The notes under the pieces were generated by a model that saw only the letters and a program-made list of their open reading frames with translations, did no database searches and had not been told where the DNA came from. 64,000 nt of DNA from an uncultured Polyangiaceae bacterium (lineage in GTDB: Bacteria; Myxococcota_A; Polyangia; Polyangiales; Polyangiaceae): positions 7,127 to 71,126 of the forward strand of contig CAZFES010000001.1 of NCBI GenBank assembly GCA_964517335.1, given 5' to 3'. Of the stretch, positions 1,765 through 64,000 are shown in pieces. Position numbers and translations under genes: made by a program. Numbering within the stretch: position 1 is the stretch's first letter; each line of letters opens with the position of its first letter.

Positions 1765-4412
<2,648 letters not shown>

Positions 4413-4476: not shown

Positions 4477-6446
<1,970 letters not shown>

Positions 6447-6474
<28 letters not shown>

Positions 6475-38061: not shown

Positions 38062-38118
38062 CCCGCGGCAGGGCGGATCTCCCACCGCGGTGACGTGGGA
38101 TGTGCTAGCAGGCACCGC

Positions 38119-38823
38119 ATGTCGTCGTTGATCCTCATCGTCGAAGATGAACGCGATCTGCTGAGCACCCTGGATTACAACCTGCGGCGCGAGGGCTACC
38201 AGACACGCTGCGCCGAGACGGGGCGCCAGGCGATCGAGCTGGCCAACCAGCGGCCCCTTCCCGATCTGATCCTGCTCGACCTGATGCTGCCGGACATCAG
38301 CGGCACCGAAGTGTGCCGCACGCTGCGCAGCATCGACCAGCTCGGGCGCGTGCCGGTGGTGATGCTGACGGCCAAGACGGACGAGATCGACCGCGTCGTC
38401 GGCTTCGAGGTAGGCGCGGACGACTACGTGTCCAAGCCCTTCAGCGTTCGCGAGCTCGTGTTGCGCATCCGAGCCATCCTGCGCCGCACCCATCCGCCCG
38501 AAGCGCCCAGCGAGTCGCTGCAGCTCGGCAAGCTGCGCCTCGACGCATCCGCCCACCGCTGTTTCGTCGACGACGAAGAGATCGCGCTCACCGCGCTCGA
38601 GTTCAAGCTGCTGTGGACGCTGATGCAACGCCGCGGCCGCGTGCAGACCCGCGACGTGCTCCTCACCGACGTGTGGGGCGTGTCGACGGTCGTCACCACG
38701 CGCACCGTCGACACCCACGTCAAGCGCCTGCGCCAGAAAATCGGCCCGGCGGGGGAGTACCTCGAGACGCTGCGCGGCGTCGGGTATCGCTTTCGGAGCG
38801 AGCCGGTCGAGGACGTGGCTTGA
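38119..38823 (+). CDS. phoB: PhoB/OmpR-family response regulator
   Basis: Receiver domain (ILIVEDERDL...LLDLMLPDISG...LTAKTDE..DDYVSKPF) followed by a winged helix (LTALEFKLLWTL...RGVGYRF). The phoB assignment rests on the partner kinase and the phosphatase-rich neighbourhood. Confidence 0.7.
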   Translation: MSSLILIVEDERDLLSTLDYNLRREGYQTRCAETGRQAIELANQRPLPDLILLDLMLPDISGTEVCRTLRSIDQLGRVPVVMLTAKTDEIDRVVGFEVGADDYVSKPFSVRELVLRIRAILRRTHPPEAPSESLQLGKLRLDASAHRCFVDDEEIALTALEFKLLWTLMQRRGRVQTRDVLLTDVWGVSTVVTTRTVDTHVKRLRQKIGPAGEYLETLRGVGYRFRSEPVEDVA

Positions 38824-41205: not shown

Positions 41206-42891
41206 CTAGCGCTCGGCGTGGATGTCGGTGGCGATCCCAGGCAGCGGCTTCCCGCCCATGTGCGCCGGGATCGGGATGTCCAGCAAGCGCGCCACGGTGG
41301 GCGCGACGCGCAGCTGCGACAGCTCCTCGTCATGCTTGGCCTGGGGCACGCCCGGTCCCCACACCACCACCGGCACGAAGCGGTCGGCCTTCCAGGGCGT
41401 GCCGTGGGTAGTGCCGGCGCCGCGCGGGCGCCCCTCGTCGTTGACCCAACCGTCGGCGTTGAGGACGTAGAGGTCGCCCGGCGTATCGTCGGCGATGCTC
41501 AGACCGACGGCGCGCTCGATGCGATCGGCGCTCTGCCGCAAACGGCCGGCCGCGCGCGCGTCGAACACGCGGTGGATGCCCGGGTGCTTCTCGAGCGCGT
41601 CGCTGACGGCCTTCACCAAGGCATCTCGCGTGTCGCCGGCGGCGCCGGAGAACACGATGAAGGGGCGGACGTAGCCGACCACCAGGCTGTCGTCGCCGGC
41701 GGCGGCCTTGGCGGCGCGCTTGGCGGTCTCGACGATCTCCTCCTCGTAGAGGCGCCCGCCGCCATGCGGGTTCTGCGGCGGCAGCGGCATCACGCCGTGG
41801 TCGGAGGTGATCAGCACCGCGATCTCGCCGCGGTCCTTCTCCAGCGCGTCGAACAGCGCCCCGAGCGCGAGATCGACGCGGATCAAGTGGTCGAGGTACT
41901 CCCAGGAGTCCGGTCCGAAGCTGTGGCCCGTGTAGTCGGTGCCCGACACCGACAGCGCCAGCAGGTCGACGACCTCGTCGCGGCCCATGGCGAGCTGATC
42001 GGCGCATAGCTTGGCGAGCTCGACGGTGTACTCGCTGAGCTGCGGGAACAGCCGCAGCATGCCGTGAGGATCCGGCGTCTTGTTCGGGTCGTAAGGAAAG
42101 GTGCTGCCGAGCTTCATGTAGTCGCCGCCTTCGCCCTCGCCGGCGTCCGGTCCGGCGGCGCGCGCGAGCAGCGCAGGGTCACGCGGTGTCCACGGGACCA
42201 TGATCGACGAGATGGGATGCGCCTCCATCCACCCGCCCAGCCACGACGGCAGCGCTTGGCTGTAGAAGGTCGAGGTGGTGAAGCCGGGAATGGCGTGGTC
42301 GTACCAGACGGCCAGATCGGCCTGCTTGCCGCCGAGCAGGATGGCCGCGCGATCCTTGCCGGACACCGACACCACCAGCGACTTGTCGCCGGTGTGGCGC
42401 TCGAGCTCGTCTCCGAGCGCCGGCACGCGCAGCACGATGGGCGCCGCAGTACGTCCGGGATGGCCGATGACCTCGTGCTCCCCGTCGCTGATGAAGGGGA
42501 CCTCCTTGCCGGTCTTGGCGTCGTAGATGCTGTTCGACGTCACGCCGTTCTGCCAGGGCGGCGCGCCGGTGATGATGGCCGCGTGGCCGGGCGCCGTGCT
42601 GGTGTTGGCGTAGTCGAAGCCGACGTTGGCGAAATAGCTGCCGCGCGCGACGCCTCGGCGAAACGCGCCATTCTCGGGCAGGAAGGGCAGATACTTTGCC
42701 AGGGTCGCGCTGCCGAGCTGATCGATGACCACCAGCACCACCAGCTTGGCCCGCCGGCTGGGGGTGGCCGCGACGGCGGCGGGCGCGGGCGCGGCCGGGG
42801 TGGTCGCCAGCGGCGGAACGGGCGGCGGCCCGCCCGCGCTCGGACAGCACCCCGACAGCGCGCACAGCAGAGCGACGAAACCTCTCCTCAT
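41206..42891 (-). CDS. Alkaline phosphatase-superfamily lipoprotein (nucleotide pyrophosphatase/phosphodiesterase-like)
   Basis: MRRGFVALLCALSGCC carries a lipobox. Motifs: VVIDQLG, NTSTAPGHAAIITG (nucleophile Thr context), SDHG. The stop is 2 nt before the LysM gene start. Confidence 0.8.
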   Translation of the reverse strand: MRRGFVALLCALSGCCPSAGGPPPVPPLATTPAAPAPAAVAATPSRRAKLVVLVVIDQLGSATLAKYLPFLPENGAFRRGVARGSYFANVGFDYANTSTAPGHAAIITGAPPWQNGVTSNSIYDAKTGKEVPFISDGEHEVIGHPGRTAAPIVLRVPALGDELERHTGDKSLVVSVSGKDRAAILLGGKQADLAVWYDHAIPGFTTSTFYSQALPSWLGGWMEAHPISSIMVPWTPRDPALLARAAGPDAGEGEGGDYMKLGSTFPYDPNKTPDPHGMLRLFPQLSEYTVELAKLCADQLAMGRDEVVDLLALSVSGTDYTGHSFGPDSWEYLDHLIRVDLALGALFDALEKDRGEIAVLITSDHGVMPLPPQNPHGGGRLYEEEIVETAKRAAKAAAGDDSLVVGYVRPFIVFSGAAGDTRDALVKAVSDALEKHPGIHRVFDARAAGRLRQSADRIERAVGLSIADDTPGDLYVLNADGWVNDEGRPRGAGTTHGTPWKADRFVPVVVWGPGVPQAKHDEELSQLRVAPTVARLLDIPIPAHMGGKPLPGIATDIHAER

Positions 42892-42927
42892 GACGGGCCG
42901 TACCTTAGCGACGCAGCCGCGCGCCGA

Positions 42928-46958: not shown

Positions 46959-48119
<1,161 letters not shown>

Positions 48120-48177
48120 GCGCCGCGTAAGGTAACACGCGGCACGGCGCAGGCGCGGTCGCTAACGAAACTTCACA

Positions 48178-48483
48178 TCAGCCCGCGATGCGCATCGGCT
48201 CGACGAAACGGAGCTCGGCGTGCTTCACCACGATGCGGGCCTGGCTGCCCAGCTTGGTGAGCGAGCCGTAGCCGACGTCGAGGTGCAGCTCGCTGCCGTC
48301 GCGCTTGCGGATCACGATCTCGCCGGGGATCAGCGCGCTGAGCGCGTCCTCCTCGTCGGCGCGGAGCGTGAAGCGCCCCACGACATCCTCGACCTCGACC
48401 TCTCGAGCCCGCGTATCCAGGATCGCGGCCTCCGGCGTGCGGATGACGACACGTAGATCCTTGTGGCTGTCGAAAATCTCCAT
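48178..48483 (-). CDS. Orphan F-ATPase epsilon-subunit-like beta-sandwich protein (101 aa, no C-terminal helical hairpin)
   Basis: GGAGG lies about 10 nt upstream of ATG 48483. LRVVIRTPEAAILDTRAREVEVEDVVGRFTLRADEEDALSALIPGEIVIRKRDGSELHLDVGYGSLTKLGSQARIVVKHAE follows the epsilon N-terminal-domain pattern (IVTPE...V.....G.F..L..H.P....L..G.......V.GG...V....V.V.A..AE). No other atp genes are nearby. Confidence 0.5.
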   Translation of the reverse strand: MEIFDSHKDLRVVIRTPEAAILDTRAREVEVEDVVGRFTLRADEEDALSALIPGEIVIRKRDGSELHLDVGYGSLTKLGSQARIVVKHAELRFVEPMRIAG

Positions 48484-48780
48484 GATGTTTCCTGCCTCCG
48501 CGCCGGTGGTGGTTTCGAGGGCTGTGGCCCGGTACCCGAGGTAACAAGAAGCGGGCCAGTCCGGACCGTGCCTCGACGTGTGGCGGCGGTGCCTGCTCGG
48601 ATCAGACGTGCGAGAGGGGCGATTCGTTCCAGCGATCCGCGATTTTTCGCTTTTCCCAGCCGGCGCCGCGGCGGAGCGCGCCGCAAGGGCTGCAGGCGCG
48701 GCGCACCCTGTGCGCACGATCCCCACCGCGCCGGCGTGAACGCGTTGACACGGCGTGTAGACGGACCGACACACTCGGGC

Positions 48781-50451
48781 ATGCACAGAGACGCGGACAT
48801 TGTCGAGGCCGTCGCGCCGCGCCCGATCGCCGACGTCGCCGCCGATCTCGGCGTGAGCGCCGACGAGATCCACCCGTACGGCCGCGACAAGGCGAAGATC
48901 GATCTGTCGGTGCTGACGCGGCCGCGCCAGCGCAGCGCGCCCAGCAAGCTCGTGCTGGTATCGGCCATCACGCCCACCCGCGCCGGCGAGGGCAAGACCA
49001 CCACCACCATCGGGCTCGGACAAGCCTTCGCCAAGCTCGGCGAATCGGTGTGCATCGCGCTGCGCGAGCCATCGCTCGGCCCGTGCATGGGCATGAAGGG
49101 CGGCGCGACCGGCGGCGGCCGCAGCCAGATCATCCCCACGGAGAGCATCAACCTGCACTTCACGGGAGATCTCCACGCCGTCACCACCGCGCACAACCTG
49201 CTCGCCGCCGCGCTCGACAACCGCATCCACTTCGACGACGCCTTGCGCATCGATCCGCGGCGGGTGATGTGGCGGCGCGTGATCGACATGAACGATCGCA
49301 CGCTGCGCGACGTCGTCATCGGCCTCGGCGGCGTCAACCAGGGCGTGCCGCGGGAGACGGGGTTCGACATCACGGCTGCGAGCGAGGTGATGGCGATCTT
49401 GTGCCTCGCCTCCGGCCTCGACGACCTGCGCGAGCGCCTCGATCGCACGCTGGTCGCGTTCAACTTCGACAAGCAGCCGGTCACGGCGCGAGACATCGGC
49501 GTCACCGGCGCCATGGTCGCGCTGTTGAAGGACGCGCTGATGCCCAACCTGGTGCAGACGCTGGAGGGCACCCCCGCCATCGTCCACGGCGGCCCGTTCG
49601 CCAACATCGCGCATGGCTGCAACAGCGTCATCGCCACCCGCATGGCGCTCCACCTGTCGGACTGGGCGATCACCGAAGCCGGCTTCGGCTTCGACCTCGG
49701 CGCCGAGAAGTTCTTCGACATCAAGTGCGTCAGCGCCGGCCTCGATCCGCGCGCGGTGGTGTTGGTCGCCACCGTGCGCGCGCTCAAGCTCCACGGCGGC
49801 GCCAAGTACGCCGATCTCGCCAAGCCGGATCCGGACGCCGTCGACCGCGGCATGGCCAACCTCGGCAAGCACGTCGAGAACATCCGCCACTTCATCGACA
49901 CCCCGATCGTCTGCATCAACCGCTTCGCCAGCGACAGCGACGAAGAGATCGCGCGCATCCAGGCCTACTGCGACTCGCGGCACGTCCCGGCGGCCGTCAG
50001 CGATCACTTCGCCCGCGGCGGCGACGGCGCCATCGACGTGGCCAAGCTGGTGATCGCGCACGGCAGCGGCAACCACCCGCGCTTCCGCCCGCTCTACGAC
50101 TGGAAGGCGGGCGTGGTCGACAAGATCGAGACCATCGCCAAGAAGATCTACGGCGCCGCCGATGTCGTCTTCACGGCGCAGGCCAAGCGCGCCCTGCGCG
50201 AGGTGCAGCGGCTCGGCTTCAGCGAGCTGCCGGTGTGCATCGCCAAGACCCAGAGCTCGCTGTCGGACGACCCGTCGAAGATCGGCCGCCCGCTCGACTT
50301 CGAGCTCACGGTGCGCGATCTCCACATCAACGCCGGGGCGGGCTTCATCGTCGCGCTGACCGGCGACATCATGCGCATGCCGGGATTGCCGCAGCGACCG
50401 AACGCCGAGCAGATCGACGTGCGCGACGGCAAGATCATCGGCCTGCGCTGA
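48781..50451 (+). CDS. fhs: Formate--tetrahydrofolate ligase
   Basis: Start is MHRDADIVEA (ATG 48781) within the longer track ORF. Motifs: ITPTRAGEGKTTTTIGL, EPSLGPCMGMKGGATGGG, HGGPFANIAHGCNS, CIAKTQSSLSDDP. Confidence 0.9.
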   Translation: MHRDADIVEAVAPRPIADVAADLGVSADEIHPYGRDKAKIDLSVLTRPRQRSAPSKLVLVSAITPTRAGEGKTTTTIGLGQAFAKLGESVCIALREPSLGPCMGMKGGATGGGRSQIIPTESINLHFTGDLHAVTTAHNLLAAALDNRIHFDDALRIDPRRVMWRRVIDMNDRTLRDVVIGLGGVNQGVPRETGFDITAASEVMAILCLASGLDDLRERLDRTLVAFNFDKQPVTARDIGVTGAMVALLKDALMPNLVQTLEGTPAIVHGGPFANIAHGCNSVIATRMALHLSDWAITEAGFGFDLGAEKFFDIKCVSAGLDPRAVVLVATVRALKLHGGAKYADLAKPDPDAVDRGMANLGKHVENIRHFIDTPIVCINRFASDSDEEIARIQAYCDSRHVPAAVSDHFARGGDGAIDVAKLVIAHGSGNHPRFRPLYDWKAGVVDKIETIAKKIYGAADVVFTAQAKRALREVQRLGFSELPVCIAKTQSSLSDDPSKIGRPLDFELTVRDLHINAGAGFIVALTGDIMRMPGLPQRPNAEQIDVRDGKIIGLR

Positions 50452-50467
50452 GCCGCGGTCTCAGCGC
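50445..50467. terminator. Hairpin GCGCTGAG-ccgcggt-CTCAGCGC shared by convergent fhs and FKBP genes
   Basis: 8-bp perfect stem with a 7-nt loop. Each arm contains one of the two stop codons (TGA 50449..50451 on the + strand, TGA 50463..50461 on the - strand). There is no U-tract, so its function as a terminator is uncertain. Confidence 0.3.
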
Positions 50468-51402
50468 ACGATCTTGATCAGCTCGACGTCGAACACCAGG
50501 TCGCCGGAGGGGGCGCCCGGCCGCGTGGGCTTGTCGCCGTAGGCCAGGTCGGCCGGGATCCAGAAGCGGAACTTGTCGCCCTCGACCATCAGCTGCACGC
50601 CTTCGGTCCAGCCCTTGATGACGCCGTTGAGCGGAAACGTCGCCGGCCGCCCGCGCGTGACCGAGCTGTCGAACATGTTCCCGTCCTTGGTCCAGCCCGA
50701 ATAGTGGACGCGCACGCGGCTCTCGGCGGTCGGCTTGGTGGTGCCCGTGCCCTTGGTCAACACCCGGTACACCAGACCACTCGCGGTCTTCTTCGCATCG
50801 GCCGGCGGCTTGTTCAGATCTTCGGGCGTGTCCGGCGGCTTCGGCCCCTCGATGATCTCGAGTAGCTCGACGTCGAAGGTGAGATCGCCCGCCGGCGCGC
50901 CCATGCGCGGCGACTGGCCGTACGCCAGAGCCGCCGGAATCCACAGCCGGCGCTTCTCGCCGACCTTCATCAGCTGGAGTCCTTCGGTCCAGCCCTTGAT
51001 GACGCCGTTGACGGCGAACTCGGCGGGTTGACCGCGCGTGACCGAGCTGTCGAACATCTTGCCGTCGGTCGTCCAGCCCGTGTAGTGCACCTTCACCTTG
51101 TCGCTGGTGGTGGGGCTCTTGTCGCCCGATCCCGCGGTGAGCACCTTGCTCTGCAAGCCGCTCGGCGTCTTTTCGGCATCCGCGGGCGCCTTGGCGACGT
51201 CCTCGGGCGGCGGGATCTCCTTCTGCGAGGCGGTGGTGGGCCCGGGCCGCGCGGTGGCGGGCTGGGTGGGCGGCGAGGCGGCGCCGGCCGTGGTGGTCGT
51301 GACCGTCGTATCCGGCTTGGGCGTGTCCGGCGCGTCACAGGCCCAGACACTCAGCGCCAACGCGCCCCAGAGCGCCACGGTTCGCTTCATCATGCGGCGC
51401 AT
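50461..51402 (-). CDS. Lipoprotein with two tandem FKBP-type peptidyl-prolyl isomerase domains
   Basis: Signal/lipobox region ALALSVWAC. Two copies of V.VHY[ST]GWT.DG.MFDSSVTRG.PA.F..NGVIKGWTEG.QLM.....W.IPA.LAYG....GAP.GDL.FDVEL. The start is 10 nt after the recQ stop. Confidence 0.85.
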   Translation of the reverse strand: MRRMMKRTVALWGALALSVWACDAPDTPKPDTTVTTTTAGAASPPTQPATARPGPTTASQKEIPPPEDVAKAPADAEKTPSGLQSKVLTAGSGDKSPTTSDKVKVHYTGWTTDGKMFDSSVTRGQPAEFAVNGVIKGWTEGLQLMKVGEKRRLWIPAALAYGQSPRMGAPAGDLTFDVELLEIIEGPKPPDTPEDLNKPPADAKKTASGLVYRVLTKGTGTTKPTAESRVRVHYSGWTKDGNMFDSSVTRGRPATFPLNGVIKGWTEGVQLMVEGDKFRFWIPADLAYGDKPTRPGAPSGDLVFDVELIKIVR

Positions 51403-51412
51403 CTTGGTTCAA

Positions 51413-53278
<1,866 letters not shown>

Positions 53279-53404
53279 GGCGGGGGCGGAGTCTAGTCGC
53301 TTGGGCTGCCGGCGCGCATCGAGTTGCTTCCAGATCGTGGCTTGCACACTCTTTGTATCGTCACGAGCCGGGCGTCACTGGTCACCACACGGAGAAATAG
53401 ATCG

Positions 53405-53448
53405 AAAAAAAGTGTTCGGCCGCGCGCCCCGCCTGCGACGAACGACAC
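53405..53448 (-). terminator. Possible intrinsic terminator after yciB (imperfect GC-rich hairpin followed by U7)
   Basis: The minus-strand RNA reads ...GUGUCGUUCG-(loop)-CGAACAC-UUUUUUU. The T7/A7 run (53405..53411) is exceptional in this GC-rich DNA and lies about 60 nt after the yciB stop. The stem is bulged and weak. Confidence 0.3.
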
Positions 53449-53470
53449 CGAGGATCGGCGCACCCACCCC

Positions 53471-54046
53471 TCACGGGGGCTTCACGGCGTGGCGCTTGAG
53501 CATGGCGCTCTGCGACAGCAGAAACAGCAGCGTGAGCACCGGGATCCCCAGGAACTTGAACCACACCCACAGGTGCTCGGCGTCGGGCGTGACGCCGCGC
53601 CACACCAGCTCGTTGATGCCGGCCAGCGCCAACGAAAACAGCCCGAAGCGCAACGACAGCGTGCGCCAGCCCGGATCGTCGAGCTCGAGCGCCGTGCCGA
53701 GCAGCGGCTTCATCCACGCGCGGCCGGCCGCCACGCCGCCGAGCAGCACCGCGCCCGTCAGCCCGGCCACGATGGTCGGCTTGACGTAGATGAAGCGCGG
53801 ATCGCGCAGCCACATCGTCATGCCGCCGAACACCAGCACGATGGCGGCGGTAATCACCGGCATCGCGCGCAGGCGGCGCTCGCGGCGGTAGCCGACGGCC
53901 AGCGCGATAGGCGCCGCGATCATGAACGCGCCCGTCGCCCAGTAGATGTCGCCGAGCTTGTAAGCGGCGAAGAACAACAGCAGCGGCCCGAAGTCGAGCC
54001 ACATCGGGTTGCCCGCATTTTCATCCGGCTGTCGGGGCTCGGCCAT
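53471..54046 (-). CDS. yciB: Intracellular septation protein A (YciB/IspZ family inner-membrane protein)
   Basis: MWLDFGPLLLFFAAYKLG...VLVFGGMTMWLRDPRFIYVKPTIV...WVWFKFLGIPVLTLLF follows the YciB pattern. Start is 54046 (MAEPRQ) or an internal Met. Confidence 0.75.
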   Translation of the reverse strand: MAEPRQPDENAGNPMWLDFGPLLLFFAAYKLGDIYWATGAFMIAAPIALAVGYRRERRLRAMPVITAAIVLVFGGMTMWLRDPRFIYVKPTIVAGLTGAVLLGGVAAGRAWMKPLLGTALELDDPGWRTLSLRFGLFSLALAGINELVWRGVTPDAEHLWVWFKFLGIPVLTLLFLLSQSAMLKRHAVKPP

Positions 54047-54140
54047 GTGACAGCGCGTAGCACAACCCGCCACCCTCGGGCGTCGACTTTGCTGCCTTTT
54101 GTGAAGCGCGCGCTGCGTCTTGTGCCTGCCTGATTGGGTA

Positions 54141-57020
54141 ATGCCGGCCCGAGACGGCCGCTGCTATGCTGGCTCCGGAGCGGAACAGGACGTGCTGGCC
54201 AAGGTACTGGGGATCCGTCCCGAAGAGCGTCGCGACACCTATGTGGCGTTCGGCACGCTGGTCGCGATCCTGTGCGCGCACTCCATGCTCGAGACGGCGC
54301 GCGACGCACTGTTTCTCGCCAAGCTGCCGCCCGAGCAGCTGCCGCTGGCCTACATCGCCATCGCGCTGTGCGCGCTCGTCGCGAGCAAAGCCAACCAGGC
54401 TGCGACGGCGCGCTTTTCGCGCCGCAAGCTGTTGAGCATCTCGCTGGCGCTCGGCGGCGTGGTGACGCTGATCTTCTACCAGCTCACGGAGGGACGCGGC
54501 GCCATCACGCTCGGCGCGCTGTACGTGTGGACCGGGCTGCTCGCCACCGTGGTGGTCGTGCAGTTCTGGCTGCAGCTCGGCGACGTGCTGAGCGTCACCC
54601 AGGCCAAGCGCGTCTTCTCGATCATCGGCGCCGGCGGGCTGGTGGGCGCCACACTGGGGTCGGGCGCGGCGAGCGCGCTGCTGTCGTACGTGGACGCGCG
54701 CGTGCTGCTGTTGATCAGCGGCTCGATGTTCGTTGTCGCGGCGGTGATGCCCCTCGGCTTCAGCCGTGCCAACACCGAGGAGGCGCCGCGGCGGCGCGCA
54801 CGGGTCGTGCCCCCGACCCAACAGACGGCGCTCAAGGAGATCGCCGGCGACGCCTATCTCAAGCGCCTGTTCTTGATGGTGCTGGTGGGCGCGTTGATGG
54901 TGACCGGCGTCGACTACGTGTTCAAGGCGCGCGTGGTGGCGGCGGCCGATCTCTATGGCTGGGACCTGGGCATCTTCTTCGGCCGATTCTACGCCGTCAT
55001 CAACGCCATCTCGCTGGTGGTGCAGCTCGTGCTCGCGCCCCGCCTCATGCGGCTGGTCGGCGTGAACCGCGCGCTGCTGTTGATGCCCGGGCTCCTGTTG
55101 CTCGGCTCCCTCGGCTTTGCGCTGACCATCGCGCTGGCGCCGGTGCTGATCCTCAAAGGCACCGACGGCGTGCTGCGCCACTCGGTCCATCGCACCGCCA
55201 GCGAGATCTTGTTCCTGCCCCTGCAGCGCCGCGTGCGCGAGCGCTTCAAGGGCTTCGCCGAGGCCGTCGGGCAGCGCGGCGGCCAGGCGCTGGCCTCGCT
55301 CATCATCCTGGGTGTGACCGCCCTCACCTCCGACGCCCGGCTCATTTCGGCGGGGCTCGTGCTGCTCGCCGGCGCGTGGGTCGTCACCATGATCGGCCTG
55401 CAGCCGCATTACCTGGAGCTGTTTCGCAAGCAGCTTCGCGCCGGCGCGCTCGACACCGAGGTCGACGTACCCGACCTCGATCTCGCTTCGTTCGAGACGT
55501 TGGTGAGCGCGTTGAGCAGCGAGGACGACGACGAGGTGCTCGCGGCGCTCGACATGTTCGAGCAGTACGGCAAGACGGGCCTGGTCCCGGCGCTCATCCT
55601 GTACCACCCGTCGCGCGCCGTGGTGATGCGCGCCTTCGACATCTTCGCGCAGCACGGTCGCAGCGACGTGACGCGGCTCGCCGCACGCCTGTTGAAGCAC
55701 GACGACGTCGAGATTCGCGCTGCGGCGCTGCGCACGCTGGCCGCCATCGCGCCGGACGAGGCGCTGTTGCGCAAGCACCTCGAGGACGCCAGCCCGCCGG
55801 TACGGCTGACTGCCCTGGTGGCGCTGGTCGGCGGCGGCTTCGTCGACGACGGCGAGGCGACCACGACCATCCGCGAGATGATCGGCGGCCACTGCCAGCA
55901 CACCCGGCTGGCGCTGGCGCGCGCCCTGCGCCACTTGCCCGCGGCGCGCTTCGACTGGGTCGCCGAAGAGCTGGCCAGGAGCGCCGGTCCCCACATCGCC
56001 GCCGAGATCGCGCGATCGGTCTCCGAAGCGCCCGACGAGCACCACGTGCCGATGTTGATCGGCATGCTGCAGCTGCGGGACGCGCGCCAGCACGCCCGCC
56101 GCGCGCTCCGTTTGATCGGCGAGCCGGCGCTCGAACAGCTCGCGGCGTCGCTCGCCGATCAGCAGCTGCCGCGCATGCTGAGGCGCCACTTGCCGCGCAC
56201 CATCAGCCGCTTCGAGAACCAGCGCGCCGCCGACATCCTGGTGGACGCGTTGGCCGACGAGCACGACGACCGCGTGGTGTTCAAGATCTTGCGCGGGCTC
56301 GGCCGCATGCGCGTGACCCATCCGAATATCAGCGTGGATCGGGACCGCATGCTGGCCATGACCGAGCACACGATGAAGGGTGCCATCACGCAGCTGCACT
56401 GGCGGCTCGCGGTGGGCCGCGTCATCGACATGAAGCAAGAGGTCATGACGCCGGCGGCCGAGATCCTGCTCGCCTACCTCGACGAGAAGTGGGCGCTGTC
56501 GCTGCAGCGCGTGTTCCGCTTGCTGCACATCATGGAGCCCACGCAGGAGTTCCGCATCATCTACGAAGGCCTCAAGAGCGAAGACGCCAAGAGCCGCGAC
56601 TCGAGCCGCGAGCTGCTCTCGCACGTGGTGCCGGATGCGTTGCGCGAAGGGATCTTGGCACTGGTGGACGACGCGCCGCCGGAACGACGGCTGGAGGCGG
56701 CCCGCGTCATCTACGATCCGCCCGGCCGACAGCTGCTCGGCCACGCGCTCGCCCGGCTCGCCAACGAAGGCGAGACGCACGAGAACCTGCGCGAGCTCGG
56801 TCTCATCTACGCGGACCATCTGCGCGACATGCTCGCCGACCGTTCCGAAGCGCTGCGATCCATCGTGGCCCACCACGTCCGCGAGCTGGGGATGGACGAG
56901 CTGATCGCCGAGGTGCGCGAGGCGGCCGGCCACTCCAGCGACGTGCTCGGCGAGGTCGCCGACCGAGCCTTGGGACTGTTCAGCATTCACCCCAACCCGG
57001 AGCTCAGCGGTGCAAGTTGA
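54141..57020 (+). CDS. TLC (ATP/ADP-translocase, Npt1/Npt2)-like polytopic transporter domain fused to a long C-terminal HEAT-repeat domain
   Basis: The N-terminal approx 430 aa have 11-12 helices and a TLC-like start (IRPEERRDTYVAFGTLVAILCAHSMLETARDALFLAKL). The C-terminal approx 520 aa are helical repeats (HDDVEIRAAALRTLAAIAP, DASPPVRLTALVALVGGG, etc.). Alternative GTG start at 54192. Confidence 0.7.
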   Translation: MPARDGRCYAGSGAEQDVLAKVLGIRPEERRDTYVAFGTLVAILCAHSMLETARDALFLAKLPPEQLPLAYIAIALCALVASKANQAATARFSRRKLLSISLALGGVVTLIFYQLTEGRGAITLGALYVWTGLLATVVVVQFWLQLGDVLSVTQAKRVFSIIGAGGLVGATLGSGAASALLSYVDARVLLLISGSMFVVAAVMPLGFSRANTEEAPRRRARVVPPTQQTALKEIAGDAYLKRLFLMVLVGALMVTGVDYVFKARVVAAADLYGWDLGIFFGRFYAVINAISLVVQLVLAPRLMRLVGVNRALLLMPGLLLLGSLGFALTIALAPVLILKGTDGVLRHSVHRTASEILFLPLQRRVRERFKGFAEAVGQRGGQALASLIILGVTALTSDARLISAGLVLLAGAWVVTMIGLQPHYLELFRKQLRAGALDTEVDVPDLDLASFETLVSALSSEDDDEVLAALDMFEQYGKTGLVPALILYHPSRAVVMRAFDIFAQHGRSDVTRLAARLLKHDDVEIRAAALRTLAAIAPDEALLRKHLEDASPPVRLTALVALVGGGFVDDGEATTTIREMIGGHCQHTRLALARALRHLPAARFDWVAEELARSAGPHIAAEIARSVSEAPDEHHVPMLIGMLQLRDARQHARRALRLIGEPALEQLAASLADQQLPRMLRRHLPRTISRFENQRAADILVDALADEHDDRVVFKILRGLGRMRVTHPNISVDRDRMLAMTEHTMKGAITQLHWRLAVGRVIDMKQEVMTPAAEILLAYLDEKWALSLQRVFRLLHIMEPTQEFRIIYEGLKSEDAKSRDSSRELLSHVVPDALREGILALVDDAPPERRLEAARVIYDPPGRQLLGHALARLANEGETHENLRELGLIYADHLRDMLADRSEALRSIVAHHVRELGMDELIAEVREAAGHSSDVLGEVADRALGLFSIHPNPELSGAS

Positions 57021-57969
57021 TCTCAGCGGTTATCGTCAGGACGACGCGCCGACCATCAATCCGGTACAGCGCGCGCTGATCATCAAGACCTTTCCCGGCT
57101 TCGCTGCCCTCGATGCCGCGGGTCTGGCGACGCTGGCCTCGATCACCCGAGAGCGCTCCTTCCGGGCCGGTACCGTGATCCACGAGCCCGGCGTGCCGGT
57201 GGTGGCGTTTCACCTCATCGTCGAGGGCGAGGTGCAGATGTATCGCAACGGCAAGGAGAGCAAGCGCTTCGGGCCGAAGAGCGCCATCGGCGGCCTGGCG
57301 TCGCTGACCCGCGATCCCGAAGGCGCCCACGCCGTCGCCGTGACCGACGTCTTCGCCCTCGAGATCGACTCCGACGACATGCAAGATGTGTTCGAAGATC
57401 ACTACGACGTGCTGCTCGGCGTGCTCAAGGCGATGTCGACCGGGCTGCGCCAGGCGCAGATCGCCGCCGGTGGCGGCGCGGCCATCAGCGGCCGCGCGAC
57501 GCCGCCTGCCGTCACGTCCCCCGGCGAGCTGTCGGTGGTCGAGAAGATGTTCTTCTTGCGCAAGACCTCCAACTTCTCCAAGGCGAGCATCGAAGCCTTG
57601 TCGGATCTCGCCGCCGGCGCCTACGAGAAGCGCTACCGCCCCGGCGACGTCATCTGGCGAGCAGGCGACGATGCGCACACCTCGGTTCAGGTGCTCGCCG
57701 GCACGGTGATCTGCCAGGCGCCCGACATGAAGCCGTTCGAGCTCGGCGTGGGCATGATCGTCGGCGGCCTCGACTCGATGGCTCGCCAGCCGCGCTGGTA
57801 CGACTGCGTCGCCAAAGACGACGTCCGTCTGTTGGTGATCGAGCGAACCCTCATGTTCGATGTGCTCGAGGACCACATCGAGATGGCGATGGCGCTGTTG
57901 CGCGCGCTCGCCACCGGCATGCAGGGCGTCCTCACACGCATGGCCGAACGACAAGATGCGGCCTCATGA
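57010..57969 (+). CDS. Protein with two tandem cyclic-nucleotide-binding (CAP effector)-like domains and no output domain
   Basis: GTG 57010 overlaps the upstream gene by 11 nt. There are two beta-barrel modules: RSFRAGTVIHEPG..VVAFHLIVEGEVQMY...FGPKSAIGGLASL and KRYRPGDVIWRAGD...VQVLAGTVI...LGVGMIVGGLDSM. Neither shows the canonical FGE...R[ST]A phosphate-binding cassette. Confidence 0.7.
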   Translation: MQVDLSGYRQDDAPTINPVQRALIIKTFPGFAALDAAGLATLASITRERSFRAGTVIHEPGVPVVAFHLIVEGEVQMYRNGKESKRFGPKSAIGGLASLTRDPEGAHAVAVTDVFALEIDSDDMQDVFEDHYDVLLGVLKAMSTGLRQAQIAAGGGAAISGRATPPAVTSPGELSVVEKMFFLRKTSNFSKASIEALSDLAAGAYEKRYRPGDVIWRAGDDAHTSVQVLAGTVICQAPDMKPFELGVGMIVGGLDSMARQPRWYDCVAKDDVRLLVIERTLMFDVLEDHIEMAMALLRALATGMQGVLTRMAERQDAAS

Positions 57970-60900
57970 ACGCTCCGCGAAGAAGCCGCAGAGGTCCAAG
58001 CGCAAGCAAGCCTCCGCACTGCGCCGCGCCATCGAGCTCGACCTCGGCTGGTTGCGCGGATACCCGACGTCCGGCGGCTGGTGCACCCTTCCCCCGCCCG
58101 GCGAAGATGCGGCGCCGCGCATCCTGACGCTGTCGGGCAGCCACCTCGCCGGCGCCACGCGCGCCGCGAAGCGCTCGTACCGCGAGCACCGCGACGCGCT
58201 CGAGGCGCTGACCGGCAACGCCGAGGCGTGGCTCAGGCGCACGCTGGCCTTGCTCGACGCCGTCAAGCCGCTGTCCCGCGGTGGCCGCGTCGACGACGGC
58301 GCGTTGCGCGCGCTGTTGCCGCATCATCGTGCCGGCACCGCGCGTGCGCTGGAGCGCGCGCTCGCCGGTCCCTTGGCGGGCGTCGCGCGCACGCTCGGAT
58401 GGATACACGTGTGGGAGCCCGCGCAGCTCAGCGCCGCGATGGCTTGGTTCGAGGCGCATCAGCCCGCGCTCGCCGCGCTGAAGCCACACGATCCGAACTG
58501 GTCGCACACGGCGCTGATGTGCGCGGCCCTCGGATTGCGCCACGGCGCGCGGGCCGATGTGTTGCTCGAGGTCCTCACCGCGCCGGGCGCATTCGATACG
58601 CCGCTGATGGGCGTCGCGACGCGCGATGTCGTCGTCGCCAAACGCAGCGGGCACGAAAAGGACTGGCCTGCGCGACCAAAGGCACCCTTTGGTGCACGGA
58701 TGCTGGCGCTGGTGGGCTGGATCCACCGCCAGCCCGACAAGGTGGCGCGGCGCGCGCTCGATCTGGTCGAGGCCACGCTTCCCGGCACCTCGCTCGAGAC
58801 ATGGCGCAGCTGGTGGAGCAAGCGCGACGCGCTCGTCGCCGAGGCCGAGCGCCTGTTGCGCGCCGCGCCGCAAGCGCCACCGCCCCGCAAGCGCATCGCG
58901 GCGATCGTCCACGCCCTCGACCAGCTCGAGAAGAAGATGCCGTCGCACGTGGACATCGATCCGATCGCGCAAGCCATCGAGGAGCTGGCGTCGGAGCCCG
59001 CGCTCGCCGAAGCGGTGCTGCCCGCGCTGCGCGTGACCCCGCGCGACGTCGAACGGCATCCGGTTCGGCTGCTCGTGCTGTGCATGTTCTGGTACGAGCA
59101 CCGCCACTGTGGACGTGACCACCGGGCCATCACGCGCTGGGCCCACGCCCTGCGGCGCTACCTCGAGCCGCAAGACGATCGCCGAGCGGCGTTGATGCCG
59201 CTGTCGCCGTACTGGCGCCAGTCGAGGGTTCCCAGCCAGCGCTATCACTTCGTGGTGGAGCGCGACCTCGCCGAGAGGCGCGACGCGCTGCCGCGCTTCT
59301 ACGAGGCGCTCGCCATCGCGCTGCGGCGCCATGGCGCCACAGCCTTCGCCAGGACTTACAGCGACGTCGGCGCAACGTCGGTGCTCGCCCACTTCGCTGC
59401 AGACGGCATCGCGCCCGAACGCGCCGTGGACATGGCCGACGCCGCCATCGCCACCAAGCTCTTCGCCGGCACGCGCTACCCCTGGCGCGGAGGGTTGCGG
59501 GCGGCGTTTGCGTTGTGCGAAGGCGACGCCGCGCGTTTCGGGCAGCTGTTGCGCGCGCTCTGGGAGCACGACCACCTCATGAACCGCGACGATGCCGATG
59601 CGCTCGGCATCGCGGCCGCGCTGAAGCAGCCCGGCGTCGCCGGACGCATCGCCGACATGGTGCTCGGCCGGGACGTCAAGCGCGTGGTGGCCATCGGCGG
59701 CCGCTTGCGTTTGCTGTCGGCCATCGGCGTGCCGGCCGTCGCGCCTCGACTCGATACGCGCGCCGGCCGAGCGCCGTGGATGCGGCGCTATCCGGCCGCG
59801 CTGGGCGATGCGCTGCGGCGCCTGTCGTCCGTCGACCCGCGCGCATCGCAGACGGCCGCCTCGCTGCTCGGCAAGGCCTTTTCCGATCCGGAGGCGCTGC
59901 TCTGCGAGCGGAACACCATCGCCTCGCGCCTGCGCGACCGCGACGATCCGCGGCTCGCCCAGCGCCTGCACAACCTCGAAGAGCGCCTGCGCACGCCGCC
60001 GGCGCTGACGCCACGCAGCGAGCGCCGCCACCTCGCCAAGCTCGAAGCGGCCATCGACCGCAAGATCATCGAGGACTGGGAGGCGCGGCTCGACGCGGCG
60101 GCGGCCGCCGCCATCGCGCCGCGCTGCTTCGGCCGGCCGGAGCTGCCGGCGTGGCTTCGCGAGCCGCCGGCGTCCGAGCTCCTGCCGGATCTGTTCCAGC
60201 TCGAGGCCAAGGCGCGCAAGCTCGCGCTGCGGCTCTTGGCGGTACGCGACGGACCGTACCCTTGGGACCTGCGCGACCATCCTGCCAATCAGCGCTTCCT
60301 GGCGCGCGTGGCGGCGCTGGGCATCGATCCGCGGCCGTGGGTCGAGGGCATCGGCATCGTCGCGATGCGCCGCCCCTCGGGCAGCGATCTGCTGCTGCAG
60401 CTCGAACGCGACCCGCTCGAGGTCCTGCGCATGGGCGCGCATTTCGGCACCTGCCTCAGCCCCGGCGCGTTCAACTTCTTCTCCGCCGTCAGCAATGCCG
60501 TCGACATCAACAAGCGCGTCCTCTACGCGCGCGACGAGGACGGCGGCGTCGTGGGCCGCTGTCTGCTGGCGCTGAGCGACGACGGGCGCATCCTGACGTT
60601 CCATCCCTACTGCCACGACGGTCAGGCCGAGTTCGCTACGATGGTGCGCGACTTTGCGCTGCGGCTCGCCGCCACCATGCGCACCGACCTCGTCTCCTAT
60701 GGCAACGTGTCGTGCTTGGTCGCGAGCGACTGGTACGACGACGGTTCGGTCGACGTGGCGGGGCGCTTCGCGTTGCGCGAAGAATCGGTGCTCGACGAGC
60801 TGGGCCAGCGCGCCGGGCAGCCGCTGCTCGATTTGCTGGAGCAGCAGCTCGCGCCGCTCGGGCTGAACGCGGTGACCTGGCCGCTGGTGGTCGCGCTGCC

Positions 60901-61348
60901 GCTTCCCGCCGATCGCCGCGAGCTGTTCGAGACCTGGCTCGCAGCCATGAGCGCGGACGTGGCGCTCGACACCAAGGCGCGCGCTGCCGAGCGCGCGTGG
61001 AATGCCGGCTCGCGCGCCGCGGTGCGGCGTTTCCTCCATCGCGCGGTTCTGCCCGATCTGGAGCGACAGGTCGCCGCGCGCCGGTCCGTCTACACGCCGC
61101 TGCTCGACATCCTCACCGAGCTCGGCATGCCCGGCCTCACGCTGAGGCTGTTGCGCCTCTCCCGACAGCGCGGTGTCCGGCGCTTCGCCGACGAGCCGGA
61201 GCTGTTGCGCCTCGAAGCCGCAGCGCGCGCGCACGAAGCGCTGCACCGTCGCAAGCTGGCGCTGGGGCTGTATCGCGTGCTCGCCAGACGCAGCAGCGGC
61301 GTCGTGCGGCAGCGCACCGAAGCGCGCATCGCAGCCCTCGGCGCTTGA
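57956..61348 (+). CDS. Large hypothetical protein (1130 aa, mostly alpha-helical, no recognised domain)
   Basis: ATG 57956 (MRPHERSAKKPQRSKRKQ) overlaps the upstream gene by 14 nt. Third codon positions are consistently G/C over 3.4 kb. A distinctive block reads GAHFGTCLSPGAFNFFSAVSNAVDINKRVLYARDEDGGVVGRCLLALSDDGRILTFHPYCHDG. Confidence 0.7.
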   Translation: MRPHERSAKKPQRSKRKQASALRRAIELDLGWLRGYPTSGGWCTLPPPGEDAAPRILTLSGSHLAGATRAAKRSYREHRDALEALTGNAEAWLRRTLALLDAVKPLSRGGRVDDGALRALLPHHRAGTARALERALAGPLAGVARTLGWIHVWEPAQLSAAMAWFEAHQPALAALKPHDPNWSHTALMCAALGLRHGARADVLLEVLTAPGAFDTPLMGVATRDVVVAKRSGHEKDWPARPKAPFGARMLALVGWIHRQPDKVARRALDLVEATLPGTSLETWRSWWSKRDALVAEAERLLRAAPQAPPPRKRIAAIVHALDQLEKKMPSHVDIDPIAQAIEELASEPALAEAVLPALRVTPRDVERHPVRLLVLCMFWYEHRHCGRDHRAITRWAHALRRYLEPQDDRRAALMPLSPYWRQSRVPSQRYHFVVERDLAERRDALPRFYEALAIALRRHGATAFARTYSDVGATSVLAHFAADGIAPERAVDMADAAIATKLFAGTRYPWRGGLRAAFALCEGDAARFGQLLRALWEHDHLMNRDDADALGIAAALKQPGVAGRIADMVLGRDVKRVVAIGGRLRLLSAIGVPAVAPRLDTRAGRAPWMRRYPAALGDALRRLSSVDPRASQTAASLLGKAFSDPEALLCERNTIASRLRDRDDPRLAQRLHNLEERLRTPPALTPRSERRHLAKLEAAIDRKIIEDWEARLDAAAAAAIAPRCFGRPELPAWLREPPASELLPDLFQLEAKARKLALRLLAVRDGPYPWDLRDHPANQRFLARVAALGIDPRPWVEGIGIVAMRRPSGSDLLLQLERDPLEVLRMGAHFGTCLSPGAFNFFSAVSNAVDINKRVLYARDEDGGVVGRCLLALSDDGRILTFHPYCHDGQAEFATMVRDFALRLAATMRTDLVSYGNVSCLVASDWYDDGSVDVAGRFALREESVLDELGQRAGQPLLDLLEQQLAPLGLNAVTWPLVVALPLPADRRELFETWLAAMSADVALDTKARAAERAWNAGSRAAVRRFLHRAVLPDLERQVAARRSVYTPLLDILTELGMPGLTLRLLRLSRQRGVRRFADEPELLRLEAAARAHEALHRRKLALGLYRVLARRSSGVVRQRTEARIAALGA

Positions 61349-61452
61349 GGCGAAGTGCCGCCCAGCAACGCCGCTGCCGCCCCGAGCTCGATCATCGAAG
61401 CAAAATGCCTCGGAGCATGCGCCTCGCGATCGACTACGCTGGAAGCGACCCA

Positions 61453-61860
61453 ATGACGATATCATCCGCCGCCGATGGTTCCGGCACCGGGACGCGCGCG
61501 AGGCGCATCCTGGTCGTCGACGACAACCGTGATGCTGCCGAGAGCATGAGCGAGCTGCTCGAGCTGCTCGGTGCCGAAGCCCACGTCGCCTACGACGGCG
61601 AGGGCGCGCTGTCGGAGGTCGAGCGCCACGCGCCGGACGTCGTGCTGCTCGACATCGGCCTGCCCGACATCGACGGTTACGAGGTGGCGCGCCGCATCCG
61701 CGCGCGGCCCGATCCGGTGTCGCCGCTCTTGGTCGCCGTCACCGGCTGGGGCCACGAGGACGATCGACGGCGCGCGCGCGAAGCCGGCTTCGATCATCAT
61801 CTGGTCAAGCCCGCGGACGTCGAGAGGCTCGAAGCGTTGCTGAGCTCGCTGGAAGCATGA
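61453..61860 (+). CDS. Stand-alone CheY-like receiver domain protein
   Basis: [14 protein letters not shown]...[17 protein letters not shown]...LVAVTGWG...GFDHHLVKP has the acidic pocket, phospho-Asp, Thr and Lys all present. In-frame alternative start at 61405. Confidence 0.8.
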
Positions 61861-61863
61861 CGC

Positions 61864-62739
61864 TCACACCAAGAAGTCGACCGCGCCGCGCTGCACCTCG
61901 ATGCTGAGCTGGTGCTCGCGCCAATGCCCGACGCGATCGTCGATGTGGACCGGGCCGCTGTAGTGCAACGCAACGCACTGCGCGCGCCGCACCGGCAGTG
62001 ACAGCGTGGCCGGCCGCCCCGCCAGACGTCCGCGCAGGTAGTGCTCGATGCGCGGGCGGTCCCGCTCGCGGGCGATCACCACGTCGAGCCAGCCGTCGCA
62101 GGGATCCGCCTGTGGCGACAGCACCATGTTGGGTCCGATGGAGGGCGTGTTGAGCACCTCCACCAGCACCAGATCGTCGGACACCACCTCGCCGTCGAGC
62201 ACCAGCGTCATCGGACGCGCCGGCAGCCGCGCCAGCGTCTCGCAGTAGATCGCCAGCGCCCGCCGGATCTCGGCCTCGGACAGCGGCGCCTCGCCGTGCA
62301 GCGCTTCGTGCTCGTCGGTCGCCGCGATCGCAGCCGCGACCACGCCACCCCCGACGCTCTCGAGAAACGCCTGGACGGCGCCGGAGCCGCGCGCGACGCC
62401 GAAGTCGAACGCCACCCGGCGGTCGGGACGCCACGCGGCGATCTTGTCCATGCCGGCGCCCTCGATGCCCAGACAGCGCGCCACGTTGTTTGCCGTGCCC
62501 ATGGCCAGCACCGCGATGGGGATGCCGCTGCCCGACAACGCCCGCGCCACGGCTTGCACCGTGCCGTCGCCGCCCGCCACCACCGCGAAGTCGATGCCGG
62601 CGTCGAGAGCATCGGCGAAGCCGTGCTCGGGCTCGAGCTCGAGCGCGAGGCGGAGCCCCGCAGCGGACAGCGCCGCGCGCACCTCGCCGATCGGGACGCC
62701 TTGCCCCGACGAGGGGTTGAAGATCAACGCGACGCGCAC
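61864..62739 (-). CDS. Diacylglycerol-kinase-family lipid kinase (YegS/BmrU-like)
   Basis: GTG 62739 gives (M)[13 protein letters not shown]. Motifs: [23 protein letters not shown]. It is the C-terminal 291 aa of the 582-aa track ORF. Confidence 0.75.
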
Positions 62740-62796
62740 GCCACACGCCGGTGCAACCAACGGGCCACTGGCCGCCAAGTTGCATCGCTGTCGCGC

Positions 62797-63606
62797 ATGC
62801 ACATTCTCGTCTGCAACGACGATGGGATCTACAGCCCGGGCATCGCCGCGCTCGCGCGCGTGGCGGCCGAGTTCGGGCGCGTGCGGGTCGTCGCGCCCGA
62901 CGCGGAGCAATCGTCGATGGGCCATGCCGTCACCGCGTCGCGACCGCTGTCCTATCGCCCGCTCGATCTCGACGGCATCGAGGCATACCGCGTCAATGGG
63001 ACGCCGGCGGACTGCGTCGCCCTCGGCTGTTACCACTGGGAACAGGTCGATGTGGTGCTGTCCGGGATCAACCTGGGGCTGAATCTCGGCCACTCCATCT
63101 GGCACTCGGGCACGCTGGCGGCCGCCAAGCAAGCCACGCTGCTCGGCCGGCGCGGCATCGCGCTGTCGGCCCCTGCGACGGAGCAGGCCGACTACGAACG
63201 CTACACGCCGTGGCTGCGCTCGGCGCTCGGCGTGCTGCTGCCGCTGTCGACGCTGCCGCTGGTCAACGTGAACTTCCCGCGCGAGCCGCGGGGCCTGATG
63301 TGGACCCGCGTGTCGGTGCGTCACTACGACGGGCATGTGGTGCCCACCCGCGATCCGATGGACCGCCCGCTCTACTGGTTCACCACCCGACCCCTCGAGG
63401 ACGCTGACGAAGGCACCGACCGCTGGGCCGTGGAGCGCGACTGGGCGTCCATCACACCGCTGCGAATCGATCTCACCGACGAGCAGCAGTATCAGCGCAT
63501 GCACCGGGACCATCCGCTCGACGAAGACACCGCGGCGGCGAGCTCGCCGTTCGGTCCGATCCCCGAAGCGGCGCGCTCGGTGCGCGAAGACGAAGCGATG
63601 AAGTGA
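62797..63606 (+). CDS. surE: 5'/3'-nucleotidase SurE
   Basis: MHILVCNDDGIYSPGIAALA...VVAPDAEQSSMGHAVT...VNGTPADCV...VLSGINLGLNLG...SGTLAAA are the canonical SurE motifs. It is the C-terminal 269 aa of the 521-aa track ORF. Confidence 0.9.
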   Translation: MHILVCNDDGIYSPGIAALARVAAEFGRVRVVAPDAEQSSMGHAVTASRPLSYRPLDLDGIEAYRVNGTPADCVALGCYHWEQVDVVLSGINLGLNLGHSIWHSGTLAAAKQATLLGRRGIALSAPATEQADYERYTPWLRSALGVLLPLSTLPLVNVNFPREPRGLMWTRVSVRHYDGHVVPTRDPMDRPLYWFTTRPLEDADEGTDRWAVERDWASITPLRIDLTDEQQYQRMHRDHPLDEDTAAASSPFGPIPEAARSVREDEAMK

Positions 63607-64000
63607 CGACACCTACATCGGCGCGCCCGCACGGTCTGAAAAATACCGTGGTGGTGGTAGCCGCGCTGTCCTGGATCGCGCGCGCACCGGCGCCGGAAGC
63701 GGCGTTTCGCGCAGATACCGCCCGCCGTGCTGGGAACGGCGCTTGCACCAACGAGCGATCGACTCGGGGCGCGGCACTGGGAGGTGCGTCGCGTGACAGC
63801 AGCGAATGCCGGCGGATCGGGTGTGTCCGCATGGAACAGCCAAGCTTCGGTGGCGGAGATCGTCCCCGCGCCGGCGGCGCTCCCGCGTCCGAGCGCGCCG
63901 CGCAAGAAGCTCGCCGATGGCGGCCCACGGCTTCGCAGACCCCGGCAGACCGAGCTGCCGCCTTCCCGCCCGCCGAGCGATCGCGCCGAGCGCACCGAAA

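Follow-up and report, generated by a model that had tools for sequence, protein, structure and literature searches.

Do the four consecutive plus-strand genes at positions 54141-61860 of a 64,000-nucleotide stretch of DNA from an uncultured Polyangiaceae bacterium (contig CAZFES010000001.1; the whole stretch is called the window here) form a single system, and if not, which of them belong together? An earlier note, made from the letters of the window, had read the run as a self-contained device for the uptake and sensing of a nucleotide or second messenger, and as an undescribed system. Our results showed that the first two genes, g1 and g2, are strictly linked, mostly translationally coupled and in some lineages fused, and that this conserved core is an architecture known since 2017 and still uncharacterised. 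The other two, g3 and g4, were acquired as neighbours in this Polyangiaceae lineage and are not components of the system. The four genes are as follows.

54141 (ATG) or 54192 (GTG)..57020, plus strand: g1, transporter with a HEAT-repeat tail, frame backed by third-position GC and Pfam
57010..57969, plus strand: g2, start GTG 57010, tandem protein of the cyclic-nucleotide-monophosphate (cNMP) binding fold, 319 aa
57956..61348, plus strand: g3, start ATG 57956, large uncharacterised protein, 1130 aa
61453 (or 61405)..61860, plus strand: g4, ATG 61453, stand-alone receiver, 135 aa

The linkage of g1 and g2 was followed in 80 loci with g1 relatives, one per species-representative genome, which were searched with the window proteins by tblastn. 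In every locus whose downstream DNA extended for at least 1.1 kb (70 of 70), a g2 gene immediately followed g1 and shared its strand, and the single apparent exception to this adjacency, L043, was explained by a frameshifted g1. The pair was distributed across at least six phyla, including Polyangiaceae and other Myxococcota, Vicinamibacteria and other Acidobacteriota, Gemmatimonadota, Binatia, Eisenbacteria/Krumholzibacteriia, Bdellovibrionales, and a metagenome-assembled genome (MAG) of Fibrobacteraceae (Fibrobacteres). In 56 of 74 loci, no more than 30 nt separated the g1 stop from the point at which homology to g2 starts, and since the match began near residue 16 of g2, the g2 start codon usually lies upstream of the g1 stop. 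With the best-fitting start, an overlap of the two genes was predicted in 60 of 67 pairs, the commonest lengths being 4, 8, 11, and 14 nt; the 11-nt overlap was identical in L003 and L084. Of the gene order proposed for the whole run, the g1-g2 part was thus strict across phyla, while the parts involving g3 and g4 failed, as discussed below. In addition to the split genes, one 1056-aa open reading frame (ORF) at L048:3964-7131 combined an NTT-like N-terminus, HEAT_2, and cNMP_binding, which represents a Rosetta-stone fusion of the two proteins.

When the ORFs flanking the g1 loci were clustered, the only further neighbour to recur was a second NTT-like paralog, which is shorter than g1. The remaining neighbour clusters were generic signalling or housekeeping genes (a GAF/histidine kinase hybrid, Ser/Thr kinases, and PPDK-like, Fpg, and Omp85 proteins) and were rejected as components, none of them being conserved. 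A reading of the locus as a defence system was rejected as well, as PADLOC gave domain-level matches only, to the cNMP domain of a Pycsar effector and to a receiver.

Two further observations were made on the composition of these loci. In two Vicinamibacteria MAGs (L048:3964-7131 and L051:~4027-7104), a fused paralog of about 1,056-1,088 aa, consisting of an NTT-like domain, HEAT repeats, and a single cyclic-nucleotide-binding domain (cNBD), precedes the split g1/g2 pair by 3 kb, so fused and split forms coexist in one locus. The second NTT-like paralog, which is very divergent (about 25% identity), was present in about a dozen NTT-HEAT/cNBD loci at 0.1-3 kb downstream of the cNBD gene, with a TLC match of 2e-8 in L017; some lineages therefore have a three-gene arrangement of NTT-HEAT, a tandem cNBD protein, and NTT. 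It was found in the following loci.

L013:9006-11216, second NTT-like paralog
L017:13738-15858, second NTT-like paralog
L018:13959-14972, second NTT-like paralog
L024, L025, L029, L041, L046, L070, and L071, second NTT-like paralog

The claim that the system was undescribed did not hold. NTT-HEAT fusions were reported as a monophyletic, broadly distributed bacterial clade, with members in Deltaproteobacteria, Acidobacteria, Gemmatimonadetes, and Fibrobacteres among others, and a cNBD gene immediately downstream, a few nucleotides away, was already part of that description (Major, Embley & Williams 2017, Genome Biol Evol, PMC5381601). Fused NTT-HEAT-cNBD forms were reported as well, and for the oomycete and Bacilli fusions a duplicated cNBD was noted (PMC5381601). 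Simple control by cyclic AMP (cAMP) has also been suggested in print. The architecture in the window is the same and nothing essential differs from it; its partner g2 is a separate protein with two cNBD-like domains. From the common architecture and the overlapping taxa, we infer that g1 belongs to this NTT-HEAT clade. No member had been characterised as of 2017 (PMC5381601), and no later functional study was found in the full-text literature, in agreement with the earlier note, which knew of no characterised NTT extended by HEAT repeats. What our analysis adds to the 2017 description is the quantified linkage (70/70), the prevalence of the stop/start overlap, and the non-canonical cassettes of the partner. 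NTT carriers have been treated as a hallmark of energy parasitism, and a strict NTT-HEAT/cNBD pair in free-living Myxococcota, Acidobacteriota, Gemmatimonadota, and further phyla would imply an uncharacterised function in regulated transport of a nucleotide type.

The product of g1 had been described as a TLC/NTT-like transporter fused to HEAT repeats, and domain searches, structure prediction, and structural comparison all bore this out. Pfam gave MFS_1 (6.5e-12), TLC (4.2e-6), HEAT_2 (2.6e-13), and HEAT (4e-3). The TLC match (PF03219) was weak, reaching 26.3 bits against a cut-off of 21 over residues 128-326 and scoring below MFS_1, and TIGR00769 of NCBIfam, for which the cut-off is 387, scored only 19 bits. 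The g1 family comprised 1,419 homologs, and a precomputed TLC match was present for most of the 120 homologs listed. The AlphaFold2 (AF2) model, built with 68 homologs, had a mean predicted local distance difference test score (pLDDT) of 87.8 and contained 6+6 transmembrane (TM) helices at residues 10-417 with a disordered central loop at 190-212, followed by a helical solenoid from residue 431 to about 930, which corresponds to about 500 aa of HEAT repeats. The transporter domain takes up roughly residues 1-430.

In a Foldseek search of the PDB with this model, the top three structures were all NTT1 proteins, namely 9j3n from C. pneumoniae and 9j3l and 9j3m of Arabidopsis AtNTT1 (E 2e-8 to 8e-8), and the next MFS carriers started at E 2.6e-6. 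The identity of g1 to these NTT1 structures was 16-17%. The same relation was obtained from sequence profiles: the sole membrane-protein matches of the g1 family profiles among PDB sequences were two NTT1 sequences (E about 1e-13). With a single sequence, phmmer matched only HEAT designs in the PDB, and the NTT1 chains came up only with a family profile; HEAT/alphaRep proteins were among the PDB matches of g1. The alignment of g1 with NTT1 revealed the common motifs FW..EAK[RK], [DE]xx[FW]KS, E-x-x-x-[IL]-P-L, K-A-x-I-D, and GxxGG, and the charged residues E34, R37, D38, K139, D241, K245, R329, E338, and R349 were invariant in the TM domain of g1. These results place g1 in the NTT family as a member of a divergent clade. 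Like the canonical NTT/TLC carriers (Chlamydia Npt1/NTT1, Rickettsia Tlc1, and plastid AtNTT1), g1 has a 12-TM MFS fold, and g1 and the canonical structures (PDB 9j3j/9j3l/9j3n) are mutual best structural and profile matches with common motifs. The canonical carriers differ from g1 in having neither a HEAT tail nor a cNBD partner, and the host of g1 is a free-living bacterium with a large genome, whereas the canonical comparison is with obligate intracellular bacteria.

The second protein had been described as consisting only of two CAP-effector-type barrels, and this was found to be so, with two cNMP_binding (PF00027) stretches at 4e-23 in Pfam and the tight coupling to g1 described above. 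Its sequence relatives in the PDB were the cyclic-nucleotide-binding (CNB) domains of PKG, PKA-R, MlotiK1, and the CRP-family regulators. The phosphate-binding cassettes (PBCs) of both domains were examined in an alignment of 70 orthologs against the canonical pattern G-E-x-A-L...P-R-[STA]-A. In domain 1, the Glu position was occupied by G, F, or L and the Arg position was variable. In domain 2, Glu was replaced by A or G, and Arg was retained in 58 of 70 orthologs, followed by Trp in 50 of 70 and then by Tyr or Phe; most of the orthologs carried the cassette G-[AG]-L-[ED]-A-L-A-x-x-P-R-W-[YF]-x-A, which is encoded at 57757-57810 of the window. Because both cassettes depart from the consensus, binding of cAMP or cyclic GMP (cGMP) in the canonical way is unlikely, and canonical cNMP binding by g2, judged from these residues, is not supported despite the PF00027 fold family. 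The P-R-W-[YF] cassette suggests a site that is maintained and different, and this family-specific cassette of domain 2 may mark a new ligand specificity. The tandem arrangement resembles that of the PKA R-subunit, from which g2 differs in lacking the cassette Glu in both domains and the Arg in domain 1. Of the proposed device for nucleotide or second-messenger uptake and sensing, the assignment of the carrier to the NTT family stood, and the part that rests on cNMP or second-messenger sensing was weakened by these missing residues. The non-canonical sites also argue against simple cAMP control as published.

Taken as a whole, a model in which the two-gene g1+g2 operon is the functional unit and makes a regulated NTT-family transporter appears reasonably probable to us; the specific details of docking and gating in it are held with less confidence than the model as a whole. 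In this model, g1 is an inner-membrane transporter of the NTT branch (TLC, TC 2.A.12) of the MFS, the C-terminus of which reaches into the cytoplasm as a HEAT solenoid of about 500 aa. The soluble g2, with its two CAP-type β-barrel domains, is made in step with g1 via the overlapping stop and start codons, would dock on the HEAT solenoid as a regulatory, ligand-sensing subunit, and would tune transport by g1 to a cytoplasmic signal. For g1, a nucleotide or some other phosphorylated anion is the probable substrate, which need not be ATP/ADP, and the ligand of g2 is probably not cAMP or cGMP bound canonically. A CAP-type β-barrel tied to a membrane transport protein is also seen in CNB-regulated transport proteins such as the CNB-gated K+ channel MlotiK1, from which g2 differs in being a separate polypeptide with an MFS carrier and not a channel as its partner; gating by g2 is putative.

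The widest alternative treats the four genes as a single co-evolved device for uptake and sensing, in which g1 imports a nucleotide or messenger, g2 senses it, g3 acts as effector, and g4 provides a link to a phosphorelay. The layout of the window is in its favour, as the four genes share one strand between opposite-strand genes on both sides, the first three overlap by 11 and 14 nt, no terminator-like plus-strand site was detected between the four genes in the terminator scan, and the order g1-g2-g3 recurs in L003 and L084. The comparison of loci stands against it. Among the g1 loci, g3 was found 3' of g2 in one of 80 (one of the 70 informative), namely in the Polyangiaceae MAG L003, with g3 at L003:13846-17280. 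A sample of 84 g3-family loci from elsewhere, made up of 80 metagenome contigs and four public contigs (L001, L002, L083, and L084), contained g1/g2 in a single locus, L084, which is from a close relative of the window genome; within flanks of up to 8 kb, none of the 80 metagenomic loci had g1/g2 relatives, and no recurring ORF family was found next to g3, which is therefore without a conserved neighbour. The g1-g2-g3 order is thus restricted to the window genome and two close Polyangiaceae relatives, L003 and L084, and is local synteny among a few related genomes. In L084 (P0125), the order was FKBP(-)/RecQ(-)/Sel1(-)/g1/g2/g3, followed by an opposite-strand PDZ/Rce1-like gene and no receiver; L083 (P0124), a close relative by RecQ/FKBP synteny, had the same FKBP/RecQ block and g3 without g1/g2; and the g3 relatives P0002 and P0003 were in unrelated contexts. 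The g2-g3 coupling is not conserved either, since the 14-nt overlap of the window is replaced by a gap of 10 nt in L003 and of 44 nt in L084. A receiver followed the g1-g2 pair in none of the 80 g1 loci, L003 included, nor in L084, and g4 followed g3 solely in the window genome among the g1 and g3 loci compared. The four-gene device is largely refuted by these synteny data and seems to us highly improbable; the claim of a self-contained four-gene module is removed as a false lead, although g3 and g4 may be co-transcribed with g1/g2 in the window genome.

Some findings weigh against the model of g1+g2 as a regulated nucleotide-type transporter complete in itself. Given the 14-nt g2-g3 overlap and the g1-g2-g3 order in three related genomes, g3 may have a local functional link to g1/g2 in this Polyangiaceae clade. 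For g1, the residues of AtNTT1 needed for ATP/ADP exchange, reportedly K155, E245, E385, and K527 (Trentmann et al. 2000), were mapped via a HMMER alignment to 9j3j with an inferred offset of 84, which puts E245, E385, and K527 on the right residue types in the 9j3j chain; K155 lies outside the aligned region of g1 and 9j3j. With this numbering, E385 corresponds to the invariant D241 of g1 and its charge is kept, E245 corresponds to the invariant Gly G115 and its charge is lost, and K527 corresponds to Q361, the basic residue being shifted to the adjacent R362. Because just one of the three mapped residues is conserved in charge in the g1 family, nucleotide transport by g1 is putative, and on these residues the substrate cannot be assumed to be ATP/ADP. 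The lost and shifted residues fit the idea that g1 carries a non-nucleotide solute, or is a transceptor with the HEAT domain and g2 as its signalling output, and so do the low identity to the NTT1 structures, the higher score of MFS_1 than of TLC, and the separate monophyletic NTT-HEAT clade without a characterised member (PMC5381601). This idea has to account for the hallmark NTT motifs that g1 keeps and for NTT1 as both the best fold match and the sole membrane-protein profile match in the PDB. To our knowledge, moreover, all characterised NTTs carry nucleotides or NAD, and we consider a non-nucleotide or transceptor role quite unlikely. As for g2, the docking on the HEAT domain is a step that we infer, and with both cassettes degenerate, g2 may sense no small molecule. 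It could instead be a constitutive structural or chaperone-like pseudo-receptor subunit, with transport that is not ligand-gated; the family-wide lack of the canonical Glu and Arg in domain 1, and in domain 2 the lack of Glu together with Trp in place of Ser/Thr/Ala after the Arg, would be expected of such a subunit. The conserved G...P-R-W-[YF]-x-A pattern of domain 2 fits a maintained, altered site, and CAP-type domains can bind non-cNMP ligands, as in NtcA and CprK; a constitutive role is in our view rather unlikely. A more elaborate version of the regulated transporter, in which the P-R-W-[YF] pseudo-cNBD senses a messenger or metabolite other than cAMP/cGMP to gate the MFS transporter and g3 was recruited as an accessory in the Polyangiaceae clade, is likewise put forward only tentatively, as an unlikely combination; if true, it would mean regulated nucleotide exchange or uptake in free-living soil and predatory bacteria.

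The slot in which these genes sit showed some variation between relatives. The FKBP(-)/RecQ(-) block is syntenic between the window (50461-53347), L083:2142-5000, and L084:1-2767, and L003:3082-4962 was assigned by a RecQ match only. The interval from this block to g1/g3 is occupied by IspA in the window; in L083 and L084, Sel1-repeat genes are found there. The lack of g1-g2 in L083 points to insertion or deletion of the pair at the FKBP/RecQ site.

The third gene was described by the earlier note as an orphan of 1130 aa with no recognisable domain. The second half of this description stood, as g3 had no match in Pfam, NCBIfam, or PADLOC, and its core had no Pfam match even at E<=10. The first half did not: word-indexed searches, by single sequence and by profile, gave 3-4 proteins, and when 1.84 billion cluster representatives were searched exhaustively with HMMER, 1,542 family representatives were obtained at E<=1e-3 and 454 at E<=1e-30, the majority being full-length at about 1,100 aa. 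The AF2 model from 49 family members (pLDDT 89.9, predicted template modelling score 0.79), consisted of a helical solenoid at about residues 15-800, an α/β core at about 800-930, and a helical TPR-like tail. Nearly all invariant residues were located in the core, including M826, G827, F830, T832, C833, L834, S843, N847, D850, N852, K853, R868, Y885, W926, and D929, and the near-invariant motif of the core was MGxHFxTCLSPGxFNFFS..NAxDINKRVLYARD..G.VVGRCLL..FHPYCHD..DWYDDG.

Foldseek found no significant match of g3 in the PDB, the best being GNAT acetyltransferases (E 0.2-2, template modelling score about 0.42), with weak matches to NatD/Naa40, Eis, and SpeG. The secondary-structure order of the core, b-a-a-b-b-b-a-b, resembles that of GNAT proteins, which is a lead only. 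The core differs from them in that the coenzyme A-binding motif Q/RxxGxG/A is not visible between β4 and α3, as seen in FHPYCHDxxxGF, and no acetyltransferase Pfam match was obtained for the core at E<=10. The search of BFVD gave weak GNAT matches and several matches to phage "PcfJ-like" proteins; a kinship with the latter found no backing in Pfam at E<=10 and is a lead only. From both groups g3 differs in architecture, its core being one part of a largely helical protein about 1,100 aa long. We conclude that g3 is a cytoplasmic protein of a large uncharacterised family, which by its genomic context is independent of g1/g2. The family exceeds 1,500 clusters, has a confident fold, and lacks a Pfam model; it merits curation as a family of its own.

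The fourth gene was confirmed as a complete receiver, with Response_reg (PF00072) at 6.5e-25 and the residues of the phosphorylation site intact: the acidic pocket in VVDDN, the phospho-acceptor Asp in LLDIGLPD, the T in AVTG, and the K in LVKP. Other receiver-containing genes are present in the window: one at 25444-25743 (minus strand) encodes a second receiver, 38% identical to g4, and one at 38062-38823 (plus strand) encodes a response regulator of the OmpR type. Among the window ORFs scanned, none was recognised as a histidine kinase.

The gene models of the four genes rest on more than their reading frames. The GC content of the window is about 70%, and long spurious ORFs are therefore common; a third-position GC of 0.86-0.96 marks the real frames, and this frame analysis backs all four plus-strand genes. 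The layout given by the earlier note, four same-strand genes with overlaps of 11 and 14 nt and a gap of about 100 nt, was confirmed from the sequence, the third-position GC, and the public gene calls. For the domain content of the four proteins, NCBIfam was in accord with Pfam. At the g1/g2 junction, the g1 TGA at 57018-57020 and the g2 GTG at 57010 make the 11-nt overlap, and a GGAG lies 7 nt ahead of this GTG; at the g2/g3 junction, the g2 TGA at 57967-57969 and the g3 ATG at 57956 make the 14-nt overlap. The gap between g3 and g4 is 104 nt with the g4 ATG at 61453 and 56 nt with the alternative ATG at 61405. The public calls on the same 73-kb contig agree on the products of g2 (319 aa) and g3 (1130 aa) and on that of g4, with 135 aa from a start at 61453, and have a g1 of 942 aa starting at GTG 54192, not at ATG 54141. 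The 17 extra residues of the longer g1 contain an R-[CR]-Y motif, which is common to the window protein read from ATG 54141 and two relatives, so ATG 54141 stays a possible start. Scans for promoters and terminators of the locus gave nothing beyond the shuffled expectation, and in an Rfam scan of 53400-62200 neither a riboswitch nor a leader was found from which the substrate might be guessed. The run is flanked by the following genes.

53471-54073, minus strand: IspA, upstream flank
61864-~62785, minus strand: DAGK/YegS-like kinase, downstream flank

At the downstream flank, a long minus-strand ORF (61864-63612) and a long plus-strand ORF (62041-63606) overlap nearly completely. According to Pfam and third-position GC, the real genes there are the DAGK/YegS-like lipid kinase (minus, ~61864-62785) and SurE (plus, ~62800-63606), and the rest is high-GC shadow ORF. 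At 6-13 kb upstream of g1, the window encodes an NPP-type phosphodiesterase/nucleotide pyrophosphatase (41206-42927, minus) and a calcineurin-like metallophosphoesterase (46959-48161, minus); no linkage of such genes to g1 was seen in the related loci, and their proximity is probably coincidental. The formate-tetrahydrofolate ligase ORF at 48463-50451 (plus) has about 108 residues ahead of its Pfam FTHFS domain, and the first GTG is probably not its true start, which would lie further downstream.

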